Source: Candidatus Aminicenantes bacterium
GTDB lineage: Bacteria > Acidobacteriota > Aminicenantia > UBA2199
Assembly (NCBI GenBank): GCA_963770755.1
Contig: CAVYQZ010000010.1
Span: 807,251-871,250, forward strand
Direction of reading: 5' to 3'
Length of the DNA stretch: 64,000 nt
Each line of letters begins with the position of its first letter. Position 1 is the stretch's first letter. A program made the position numbers. Below are positions 12,001 through 15,000 of the stretch, piece after piece.

Positions 12001-15000
12001 ATCGGTGGCTACCATTTCCAAAACTCCGCCATCCAGGGAGGTCAGTTTAATATTTTGCAAAATTTCCATTATTGCTTTTTTCTCAAAGATCCCTTGAAAT
12101 AAACGCAACTCATTTTCAAGTTTTTCTTTTTCCACAAAAATTTTCATATTCAACCTGCCTTATTATTTAAATAAAATATATAATAATAAAAATAAAAGAA
12201 ACAAGCAATAAGGAAAAGTGGAAAAATTCGCAGATCACCATGGGGTGTGATTTTTTTGTTTTTAGTGAGTGTTGAAAACTTGTGACCAATGTTGAAAAAT
12301 TCAATCAGTAAAAAATTCAACATAGTAATTAACTTTTCTTGAAAAGTCATTGTCGGTTTGAAGCATCCTTTCAATTTTTTTAATAGAATGGAGTACGGTT
12401 GTATGGTGTTTTCCTCCAAATGAACTTCCTATTTCCACCAGAGGATAACGGGTAAGCTTTTTGGCCAGGTACATGGCGACTTGTCTTGGCAAGGCTATTT
12501 TCGGGGAATTGTTTTTAGATTTTAATTCCTCGATTTTTATATCAAATTTTTCTGAAACAAATTCTTGAATGGTATCAATCGTAATGATTTTTCTTTCAAT
12601 ATTAATATAAGGCTTCAAAGCTTCTTTAGCAAAAGGAAGTGTGATGTCGGCTGATTGCTGCTCGGAATGTTTTAGATCGGCATAGCCAAGAAGCCTATTC
12701 AGTGCTCCTTCAAGTTTCCTTATATTATCCTTGATGGAAGTTGCTAAAAAATAAACTACTTCTTTGGAAATCACGAAATCATTATGGAAGGTGTTTTTTC
12801 TTTCAGCGATTTTTTTTTGCAAAATGGCAATTCTGGCCTCTAAATCATAAGGAAGAATGTCAACAATAGCTCCCATTTCAAATCTTGATTTTATCCTCTT
12901 TTCAAGGTCGGGCATATTATCCGGATGCTTGTCCGAGCAAATAACAATTTGTTTTTCCTGTTGGATCAAACTGTTAAATATGTAATAAAATTGTTCACTG
13001 GTTCCACCCCATTTGGTGATATATTGAATATCATCGATTAGCAAGACATCTATTGAAGTATATTTTTTTAAAAACTCCGAACGTTTATTCAAGCGAGTAT
13101 ATTCGACATATTCATTCATAAAATCACTGGTGGTCAGATAAATCACATTAATTTTGTCGTTATTGTCCACAATCCGGTTTCCGATAGCCTGCATGAGATG
13201 CGTTTTGCCAAGGCCGACGTCGCTGTAAATATAAAGAGGATTGTAGGATTTTCCCGGAAACTCTGATACGCTATAAGAAAAAGAATAAGCAATGCGATTG
13301 GAATCACTTTGAACCAAAGAATCGAAGGTATATTTTTTTTGCAAGTGCGATTCAAGATTAAGGTTTTTTTTCGTCCCTTCCCGGCCATGCTGGATGTTTT
13401 CTTCTTCACCTAAAGGGACTATCTTGGTTATAAAGTCAAAATTGCTTTTTGTGTAGCTGTTTATATTATCAAGCAGATTTTGTTTGATCCAAAGCAGATT
13501 TTTTTGTTCTGGTGCCCCCAGAAAAAGCGTGTTTTCAAGAGAACCAATGTATTTTAGTGGTTCAATCCATTTTTTGTAAGATGGCTCATCCAATACGCCT
13601 TTCAGATAATTGGTTAATTTTTCCAGATTGTTCATTAGCTCACCATTTTCCACAAATATTTTAACAAATGTGGAAAAACGTAATATTTCCAGTCCTAAAA
13701 ACCAGTTGCATTGCCTAATCCTAGTGTAAAAAGTATTAAGTGTCAAGCCTTGACAAATAAAAAATTATTTGCTTAGATAGTATCCATGAAAGACAAAGCA
13801 ATATTCAATCAAGTACAAAAAAAAATCCATGAATTACAGGTAGAATTCTTAGATTTAAAAATCCTTGATCTAAAAGGTAAACTACACTCATTGTTACTGC
13901 CAAGTAAAATGTTGGATTCCAAATTATTTGAGAACGGGGTTGGTTTCGATGCTTCTTCTTATGGATTTGCCAAGCCGGAAAAAAGTGATATGGTAATGAT
14001 CCCAGATTTGGAAACAATGATTATTGATCCTTTCCGGGAAAGAAAAACCGCGGTTTTCCTGGCCAACATCCATTTGGCTGACAATATGCGCACCCGCTTT
14101 GCTGAAGACCCGCGTTTCGTCGCTCTCAAGGCTGAAGAAGCTCTAATAAAATCAAAATTTGGAACCAGTGCTTTATTTGGACCCGAATTTGAATTTTTTA
14201 TTTTCAAAGAAGTTGGTTTTGGGGTTAGTTCTGAAGGAAGTTACTATTTTTTAAAGAAAGACAGTGAGGAAAAAAGAAATTTTTATCACGCCGGCTCTCC
14301 CGACGATGAATTTATTGATTTCAAAAATGAGGCGGTTTGTCTACTGCAGAATTTGGGAATTGATATCAAGTATCATCACCATGAAGTTGCCGTCAACCAG
14401 CATGAAATCGAAACCAAGTTCCACACTTTACTAAAAACTGCCGATCAAGCCGTCATTATCAAATATGTATTATTCAACCTGGCTAAAAAACATAACTTGT
14501 TTGTGACCTTTATGCCCAAGCCGTTTTTTGGGAAAGCCGGGAATGGCTGGCATGTTCACCAATATGTCAAAAATAAGGACAAGAATATTTTTCTAAAAAA
14601 AGGTAATTATGCCAACCTTTCAGAAATCGGACTTCATTATATGTCGGGACTTTTGTTTCATTCTGGATCTTTGTGTGCTTTCTCGAATCCATCAACAAAT
14701 TCTTATAAAAGATTGATAAGGGGATTCGAAGCCCCGGTTTCGGCAATTTTCGCCACATCCAACCGGAACGCCGCTATCCGCATTCCCGCCTATGTAAATG
14801 AAAGCGAAACACGCATTGAATATCGGCCGGGAGATGCCGCCTCCAATCCCTATTTGTTTTTATCAGCCATGTTACTGTCTGGTATTGACGGAATTTTTAA
14901 AAACATATCGCCTGAAAAATTTAATTTTGGACCCTTTGATACCGGGATACCGGAAACAAAAGGTTTTAAAAACAAGATCAAAGAACTTCCAGAGAGCCTT

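Follow-up and report, generated by a model that had tools for sequence, protein, structure and literature searches.

In Bacillus subtilis, genetic work shows that the origin region incC requires a proximal pair of DnaA boxes (#6/#7), lying beside DnaA-trios, together with a distal box that operates in helical phase from a distance of at least 44 bp, and the distal boxes within incC raise DnaA's local concentration at the proximal boxes (PMC6669920). Of the two strands, the one that runs 3'-5' away from the boxes carries the trios (PMC8287927), and Clostridioides difficile provides a further example (PMC7561715). Looped bipartite origins have been reported for B. subtilis, Helicobacter pylori, and C. 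difficile (PMC7561715, PMC6669920), and the clostridial oriC1 carries 9 to 19 boxes (PMC7561715). In Escherichia coli, the core of a DnaA-reactivating sequence (DARS) consists of three DnaA boxes with a 5-bp gap between the opposed boxes, and it promotes release of ADP from DnaA (PMC6868365). The in silico criteria of Mackiewicz et al. for oriC, in the form quoted in PMC7561715, are dnaA together with a GC-skew switch, a cluster of boxes, and an AT-rich DNA unwinding element (DUE). Here, we compare these systems with the region around dnaA in a 64,000-nucleotide (nt) stretch of contig CAVYQZ010000010.1 (hereafter, the window) from a Candidatus Aminicenantes bacterium (Acidobacteriota). In the literature that we searched, there was no description of an origin for Aminicenantes.

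The dnaA-dnaN region as a likely replication origin

The sequence data make it likely that this region is the chromosomal replication origin of the Aminicenantes bacterium, with strand opening most likely in the 153-bp spacer between dnaA and dnaN. Placement of the origin at dnaA is well supported, because the GC-skew minimum, the divergence of gene orientation, the parS/parAB/gidB genes and sites, the most unstable DNA, and an enrichment of DnaA boxes all coincide there. To compare the locus with others, we used 45 loci with 59-97% DnaA identity from a metagenome scan plus three from assemblies (L081-L128, the relatives), as well as 80 distant loci as outgroups (L001-L080; DnaA ~40% identity, no Aminicenantes) taken from a DnaA-alignment scan of genome contigs.

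Cumulative G-C fell from base 1 of the window to a minimum at 12159, within the dnaA-dnaN spacer, and then rose up to the window end; gene orientation likewise diverges from the dnaA-dnaN point. The skew check proposed in a preliminary description of this DNA, run here on the 64-kb window, thus put the minimum at the predicted origin. This asymmetry is not only an effect of gene strand, because positive skew persists in the right-hand blocks of minus-strand genes (20-27 kb, 35-37 kb, and 42-44 kb). Relative L127, whose DnaA is 68% identical, has its local skew minimum within dnaA. By computed nearest-neighbor energy, positions 12161-12210 form the least stable 50-bp duplex of all 63,951 window positions, and the least stable position is the same in relatives L126 and L127.

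Exact TTTTCCACA boxes occur five times in the window against 1.41 expected (2 of 100 shuffles reach five), and three of these five fall within the 1.55 kb around dnaA (chance ~1e-4, binomial estimate). Across 28 relatives with 59-95% DnaA identity, which are related rather than independent loci, the density of exact TTWTNCACA boxes is 12.05/kb over the 160 bp upstream of dnaA and 7.57/kb over the spacer together with the 5' end of dnaN, versus 0.13/kb inside dnaA and 0.07/kb in the rest of the loci; both regions that flank dnaA thus exceed the remaining sequence ~100-fold. The pattern persists down to 59% DnaA identity, where the flanking non-coding sequence can no longer be aligned. Enrichment over background, on which the preliminary description had staked its proposal, is therefore borne out both by exact boxes and by the relatives. 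Densities of boxes with up to one mismatch peak over dnaN and the spacer, but were not used as evidence because the AT-rich composition of the region makes such counting non-discriminating. Measured against the criteria of Mackiewicz et al., the locus lies beside dnaA at a local GC-skew switch, it has an AT-rich candidate unwinding element next to boxes (12161-12210), and it contains at least three boxes (TTWTNCACA, up to one mismatch) at a mean spacing below 100 bp, namely those at 12128, 12217, 12270, and 12290 downstream and at 13619, 13646, 13669, and 13723 upstream of dnaA.

The features of the downstream part are as follows.

12304-13635, minus strand: dnaA (444 aa; Pfam Bac_DnaA, Bac_DnaA_C, and DnaA_N)
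12270-12298, minus strand: distal boxes 1 to 3
12298-12290, minus strand: distal box 1, TTTTCAACA
12289-12281, minus strand: distal box 2, TTGGTCACA
12278-12270, minus strand: distal box 3, TTTTCAACA
12225-12217, minus strand: proximal box 4a, TTTTCCACT (plus-strand reading AGTGGAAAA, one mismatch from a box)
12217-12209, minus strand: proximal box 4b, TTTTCCTTA, weak, overlapping box 4a at an 8-bp offset
12208-12205, minus strand: 4-nt cluster TTGC, directly after box 4b
12181-12204, plus strand: DnaA-trio-like run (dnaA-sense TTG TTT CTT TTA TTT TTA TTA TTA; the plus strand bears the 3'-NAN-5' triplets)
12161-12210: AT-rich candidate DUE, 92% AT
12145-12161, minus strand: dnaN Shine-Dalgarno sequence (AAGGCAGG, 12161-12154) and start codon (ATG, 12147-12145)
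12128-12136, plus strand: exact DnaA box TTTTCCACA inside dnaN codons 4-7 (ATG at 12147)
11047-12147, minus strand: dnaN (Pfam DNA_pol3_beta domains; 367-aa product)

In the direction of dnaA transcription, the spacer has a fixed order, in which distal boxes, a variable stretch, the proximal pair, a short cluster with triplets, and an AT-rich stretch are followed by dnaN. It measures 153-158 nt in nearly all loci (153-167 bp overall). The distal boxes begin right after the dnaA stop codon, and at the orthologous positions the relatives carry exact TTTTCCACA or TTATCCACA. The start-to-start distance to box 4a is 53-55 bp from box 3 and 73-75 bp from box 1 (~5 and ~7 helical turns, respectively), and these distances stay constant from 59% to 95% DnaA identity, with ~40 nt of unconserved sequence in between. 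Within this filler (12226-12269 and the aligned positions), a short inverted repeat is common, its sequence differing from lineage to lineage; a terminator scan returned no terminator between dnaA and dnaN in the window.

Box 4a is kept as TT(T/A)TCCACT in the relatives, and box 4b is the better of the two in the distant ones (TTTTCAACA, TTTTTCACA). The pair TTTTCCACT and TTTTCCTTA corresponds to the box element of the basal unwinding system (Richardson 2016/2019, Pelliciari 2021), i.e., a box with at most two mismatches and an optional weaker tandem box, and at least three 3'-NAN-5' triplets follow within 16 bp of a box, a feature that discriminates weakly in T-rich DNA. With their NTN reading on the dnaA-sense strand, the triplets conform to the published rule of orientation and spacing. 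Eight NTN triplets at a spacer of 12 nt from the proximal box gave a shuffle p of 0.07, and seven triplets matching [CT]T[AT] ([G/A]A[T/A] on the other strand) at a spacer of 15 gave p=0.0016. Close relatives again have runs of 7-8 at spacer 12 (only rows with a correctly anchored box were compared), and we regard the trios as weakly informative. Beyond them, the AT-rich stretch extends to the Shine-Dalgarno sequence and ATG of dnaN, which are conserved in all relatives. The preliminary description had proposed as the DUE a ~55-bp, 85% AT stretch of the spacer and had pointed to a box-like 9-mer at about 12217-12229; positions 12150-12204 are indeed 85.5% AT, the DUE candidate does lie in the spacer, and 12217-12225 reads AGTGGAAAA. 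In plus-strand reading, the TGTTGAAAA boxes at 12270-12278 and 12290-12298, TGTGACCAA at 12281-12289, and the weak box at 12209-12217 are additions to that account. Its gene calls for dnaA and dnaN agree with the Pfam matches.

Every relative also has a -10-like hexamer (TATGAT, TATTAT, or TATAAT) ~35-45 nt before the dnaN ATG (12165-12200 and aligned positions, L081-L128), often preceded by TGn in distant relatives. This hexamer is a possible dnaN promoter that would overlap the unwinding element.

On the far side of the AT-rich element, and pointing towards it, lies the exact box at 12128-12136, which had been placed in the spacer; the box itself is there, and its location is inside the dnaN coding sequence. 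In dnaA orientation it reads TGTGGAAAA and spans the last base of codon 4, codons 5-6, and the first two bases of codon 7. The box is invariant in 28 relatives, and its codons show no synonymous variation among the 28 sequences (TTT in 26/26, GTG in 28/28, GAA in 27/27), while alternative codons for the same amino acids are used freely a few codons later. In L120, the Glu codon GAA is changed to GAT (Asp), which yields TGTGGATAA, the classical consensus box. Because synonymous variation is absent and L120 changes the amino acid yet keeps a box, the pattern points to selection acting on the DNA motif within dnaN itself. We saw no equivalent inverted box within dnaN in the Bacillaceae or Clostridium loci examined. 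It may serve as a boundary, control dnaN, or provide a second point of nucleation. In a reading that we consider unlikely, another DnaA filament would start from the box on the opposite strand, such that the AT-rich element would be opened from both sides.

In an alignment with E. coli DnaA, R399, P423, and D433 are replaced by N (N376), V (V400), and H (H410), respectively, and H434, T435, and H439 are kept; we take these six E. coli residues to be base-contacting ones. N376 is unchanged in 30 relatives. The substitutions may relate to the preference for TTTTCCACA and TTTTCAACA over TTATCCACA.

On the basis of these elements, we propose that DnaA would bind the distal boxes just past the dnaA stop codon and, ~5 and ~7 helical turns away, the two overlapping proximal boxes. 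A DnaA-ATP filament would grow from the proximal boxes onto the A-rich strand of the adjoining trio-like triplets and melt the 92% AT element that reaches up to the dnaN ribosome-binding site. DnaA bound at a three-box module upstream of dnaA would most likely repress the dnaA-dnaN operon, and a further possible role of that module is to recruit DnaA as the second half of a split origin.

The three-box module and the dnaA promoter

The glnA-dnaA intergenic region (150 bp) is shared by this module and two promoters.

13646-13677, minus strand: three-box module
13677-13669, minus strand: box L, TTTTCCACA, followed by tt
13666-13658, minus strand: box M (weak), TGTTAAAAT, followed by att
13654-13646, minus strand: box R, TGTGGAAAA
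13718-13746, minus strand: dnaA promoter (-35 TTGACA, 17-nt spacer, -10 TAGGAT)
13741-13755: palindrome TGTCAAGCCTTGACA, containing the dnaA -35 hexamer and a mirrored TTGACA that faces glnA

On the plus strand, TTTTCCACA occupies 13646-13654 and its complement TGTGGAAAA 13669-13677, so that the two arms complement each other perfectly over 9 nt; dnaA starts with the ATG at 13635 (minus strand), with 10 nt between the nearer box and the start codon. An inverted box pair abutting dnaA had been described here. Both exact 9-mers, their positions, and their adjacency to dnaA stand, the gap being 10 nt, and the pair is in fact part of a module of three boxes. The 14-nt "spacer" between L and R is conserved because it holds the third, weak box (M, 13658-13666), which the preliminary description lacked. 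Among 43 loci with 16 unique variants of the module, R is invariant except for its outermost base (T for A in 3/16 variants, TGTGGAAAT), and L varies mainly at positions that TTWTNCACA tolerates (TTATTCACA, TTTTTCACA). M is a good box in L127 (TGTGGAAAT) and L116 (TGTGAAAAA), and the head-to-head spacing between L and M within the L-R gap is 2 bp in all Aminicenantes relatives.

The dnaA promoter is the best promoter-like site in 11900-14000, matching at 10/12 positions, and both hexamers hold their position in the relatives. Within the dnaA leader, the module covers roughly +35 to +66, its end being next to the ribosome-binding site. Because it lies in the leader downstream of a conserved promoter, an autoregulatory DnaA operator for the dnaA-dnaN operon is at least plausible and is the most economical reading of the module. 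By analogy with the known split origins, it may also serve as the DnaA-loaded second half of such an origin here. The upstream intergenic region has no DUE of its own; its best 50 bp is surpassed in instability by ~1.6% of window positions. In the Nitrospira locus L057, the module is present though dnaN follows dnaA after only 23 nt, which argues that module function is tied to dnaA itself.

We also considered box M as an extended -10 element (TGnTAAAAT) and rejected this candidate, as half of the variants have A in place of the last T and other phyla have an ordinary DnaA box as M. The palindrome TGTCAAGCCTTGACA has no second copy in the window, and each of 36 Aminicenantes loci has a single copy, invariably at the dnaA promoter, also where a gene other than glnA lies upstream. 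A regulator site is one possibility for it, and a pair of -35 elements placed back to back is another. A GlnR/TnrA-type site was dropped as an explanation, since the palindrome has a 5-nt center and the GlnR/TnrA consensus a 7-nt center. On the glnA side (13747-13788), TTGACA is followed after 17-18 nt by a -10-like TTAGAT/TAGATA ending ~6 nt before the glnA ATG; this spacing is kept in relatives, and there is no Shine-Dalgarno sequence. Because the -10-like element ends so close to the ATG and a Shine-Dalgarno sequence is absent, the glnA mRNA may be leaderless.

Of the 80 distant loci, 37 have the same module upstream of dnaA, with one forward and two reverse boxes separated by gaps of 2-4 and 2-3 bp and without any change of orientation relative to dnaA. 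Acidobacteriota, Bacilli, Clostridia, Nitrospirota, NC10, and Sumerlaeota are among them; none of 13 gammaproteobacterial loci (0/13) had the module upstream of dnaA. In the literature searched, we came across no account of it as a unit.

Gene neighborhood

The gene order across the region is gyrA-gyrB-recF-dnaN-dnaA on one side and glnA-gidB-parA-parB on the other, with clear Pfam matches throughout and two parS sites.

5107-7575, minus strand: gyrA (Pfam match)
7585-9996, minus strand: gyrB (Pfam match)
10002-11036, minus strand: recF (Pfam match)
13786-15162, plus strand: glnA (Pfam match)
Directly beyond glnA, plus strand: gidB, parA, parB, and a bactofilin gene, in that order (Pfam matches)
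15349-15364: parS with one mismatch, at the start of gidB
15916-15931: exact parS, TGTTTCACGTGAAACA, between gidB and parA

DnaA relatives with up to 94% identity are metagenomic, and those with names are Candidatus Aminicenantes or Acidobacteriota. The two parS sites (0.15 expected by chance in the window) lie 1.6-2.3 kb from the origin region, bracketing gidB just before parA-parB; in relatives, this place has one or two such sites, and in L126-L128 parS is likewise beside gidB/parA. Close relatives share the glnA-gidB-parA-parB order, and in the complete Aminicenantes chromosome CP070627.1, whose dnaA is near 6.2 Mb, gidB adjoins dnaA, with no glnA between them. Thus, glnA is a lineage-specific insertion into a standard origin-proximal gene set, and the origin context is not unusual, because gidB-parA-parB and parS sit directly beyond glnA and CP070627.1 lacks glnA at this position. 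The preliminary description had correctly recognized a glnA-like gene on the far side of the origin, but in calling the neighborhood atypical it overstated the case. There was no rpmH-like open reading frame in the 64-kb window.

Across the window, G+C content is as low as 0.335 around dnaN/dnaA and as high as 0.545 near 32-34 kb and near 46-48 kb, and it differs widely among relatives with 84% identical DnaA (e.g., 0.56 in L126). The sole Rfam match at gathering score in the window was a cobalamin riboswitch (53283-53462, plus strand, 62.5 bits).

Alternative readings and comparison with known systems

Several points weigh against the origin assignment and its assigned parts. The skew is local, covering 12 kb to the left of the site, and the chromosomal minimum could lie elsewhere; in relatives L126 and L128 the local skew is not decisive. 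Two proximal and two distal boxes in the window differ from a box by one or two mismatches, runs of NTN come close to expectation in T-rich DNA (p=0.07), and some relatives do not preserve the trio frame. In addition, part of the conservation of the AT-rich block could reflect a dnaN promoter with its -10-like element, and the literature searched yielded no DnaA-binding, melting, or replication data for the lineage. Several observations would suit an explanation in which the boxes are only transcriptional operators of dnaA and dnaN and the origin is elsewhere on the chromosome: DnaA is a known autoregulator, the upstream module sits between the dnaA promoter and ATG, a conserved -10-like element precedes dnaN in the AT-rich region, and one box overlaps the dnaN 5' end. 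Nevertheless, we judge this explanation quite unlikely, given that the skew minimum, the gene divergence, parS/parAB/gidB, and the least stable DNA of the window all coincide here, and that an incC-like geometry of boxes, trios, and AT-rich DNA with fixed helical phasing is found at the same place. A strictly bipartite origin, one that needs both the upstream module and the spacer, with DnaA forming a bridge between the two and dnaA looped out, is a realistic possibility, although we lean against it. It would match the published layout (PMC7561715, PMC6669920), with box clusters on both sides of dnaA and a DUE only downstream; moreover, the upstream module is as strongly conserved as the downstream elements and co-occurs with dnaA-dnaN-type origins in many phyla. 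However, the spacer already has distal boxes of its own at a conserved, in-phase distance, and the distal boxes of B. subtilis incC act locally in raising DnaA concentration at the proximal boxes (PMC6669920). The upstream module, for its part, has only two strong boxes and lies in a transcribed leader, and Nitrospira L057 has the module but, with dnaN 23 nt after dnaA, no downstream half.

The module itself could be read in other ways. That its inverted repeat is an RNA hairpin of the dnaA 5' untranslated region, or the site of an unrelated dimeric regulator, rather than DnaA boxes, is suggested by the 9-nt perfectly complementary arms in a transcribed leader beside the ribosome-binding site. 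A conserved hairpin was rejected, because the 16 variants contain no compensatory change, the changes in L (TTATTCACA, TTTTTCACA, AAATTCACA) being uncompensated and mostly at consensus-free positions. Furthermore, the same 9-mer marks the downstream origin elements, the "loop" is a third box in relatives and other phyla, and no Rfam family matches the region, so that we consider this alternative highly improbable. The module might instead act like a DARS core, with head-to-head DnaA-ADP releasing its ADP and being recharged with ATP beside the origin. Its topology equals that of the E. coli DARS1 core, which reads TTATCCACT-N5-TGTGGATAA-N3-TGTGTATTA in MG1655, and the second spacing is identical (3 bp). 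In contrast, the head-to-head gap is 2 rather than 5 bp, the ranking of box strengths is inverted, autoregulation is already suggested by the place in the leader, and E. coli Q208, which is needed for DARS action, aligns with Asn. The module thus falls outside the DARS class, and a DARS-like function is a low-probability lead. On account of the shared topology, a broader proposal is conceivable, i.e., that the module is an ancient origin-linked device for remodeling DnaA (by nucleotide exchange or head-to-head pairing) instead of a simple operator, but we think it unlikely, as we do the separate idea of a second filament from the dnaN box.

Taking the dnaA-dnaN region as the probable origin, our analysis provides a well-supported assignment with mapped elements for Aminicenantes, an uncultured lineage, and extends the Bacillus-type plan of distal boxes, proximal pair, trios, and AT-rich element to Acidobacteriota, in line with the published claim of an ancestral, widespread unwinding system. 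For practical use, the site offers an anchor for peak-to-trough estimates of replication rate from metagenomes and a start coordinate for assemblies. The finding leaves the understanding of initiation unchanged and would not surprise a specialist; only the box inside dnaN and the three-box module shared across phyla might be worth pursuing further.

The closest likeness is to B. subtilis incC, with which the locus shares its position between dnaA and dnaN, in-phase distal boxes at least 44 bp off (here, 53-55 and 73-75 bp), proximal boxes at an 8-bp offset, a 4-nt cluster, central-A triplets, and an AT-rich stretch up to the dnaN ribosome-binding site. Bacillaceae and Clostridium loci likewise have a box pair at an 8-bp offset, a 4-nt GC cluster, trios, and AT-rich DNA (for example, TTATCCACATATCCACA-AGAC-CTACTACTATTACTACTA, followed by AT-rich DNA). 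Unlike incC, the locus studied here prefers TTTTCCACA over TTATCCACA and has several boxes with A at position 6 (TTTTCAACA), its triplets are TTT/CTT/TTA rather than CTA, its cluster is TTGC rather than fully G+C, and it carries an extra conserved inverted box inside dnaN.

Compared with the E. coli DARS1 core, in which box I is opposed to box II and box III is co-oriented with II, the upstream module likewise has one box (L, forward) facing two co-oriented boxes (M and R, reverse), and the second gap is 3 bp in both. In contrast, the opposed-box gap is 2 bp, here and in all Aminicenantes relatives, versus 5 bp, corresponding to a rotation of ~100 degrees, and the middle box is the weakest in the window and the strongest in DARS1. 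Unlike DARS1 and DARS2, the module is part of the dnaA leader rather than of a distant locus.

The preliminary description had likened the arrangement to a Bacillus/Helicobacter-type split origin, and this resemblance holds: as in the bipartite origins of B. subtilis, C. difficile, and H. pylori (PMC7561715), dnaA separates two box clusters, and the DUE lies in one of them, downstream, in the spacer. Unlike in those origins, the upstream part is minimal here, with two strong boxes and one weak box in a 150-bp intergenic region, and its upstream neighbor is glnA, followed by gidB-parAB, in place of rpmH-rnpA.

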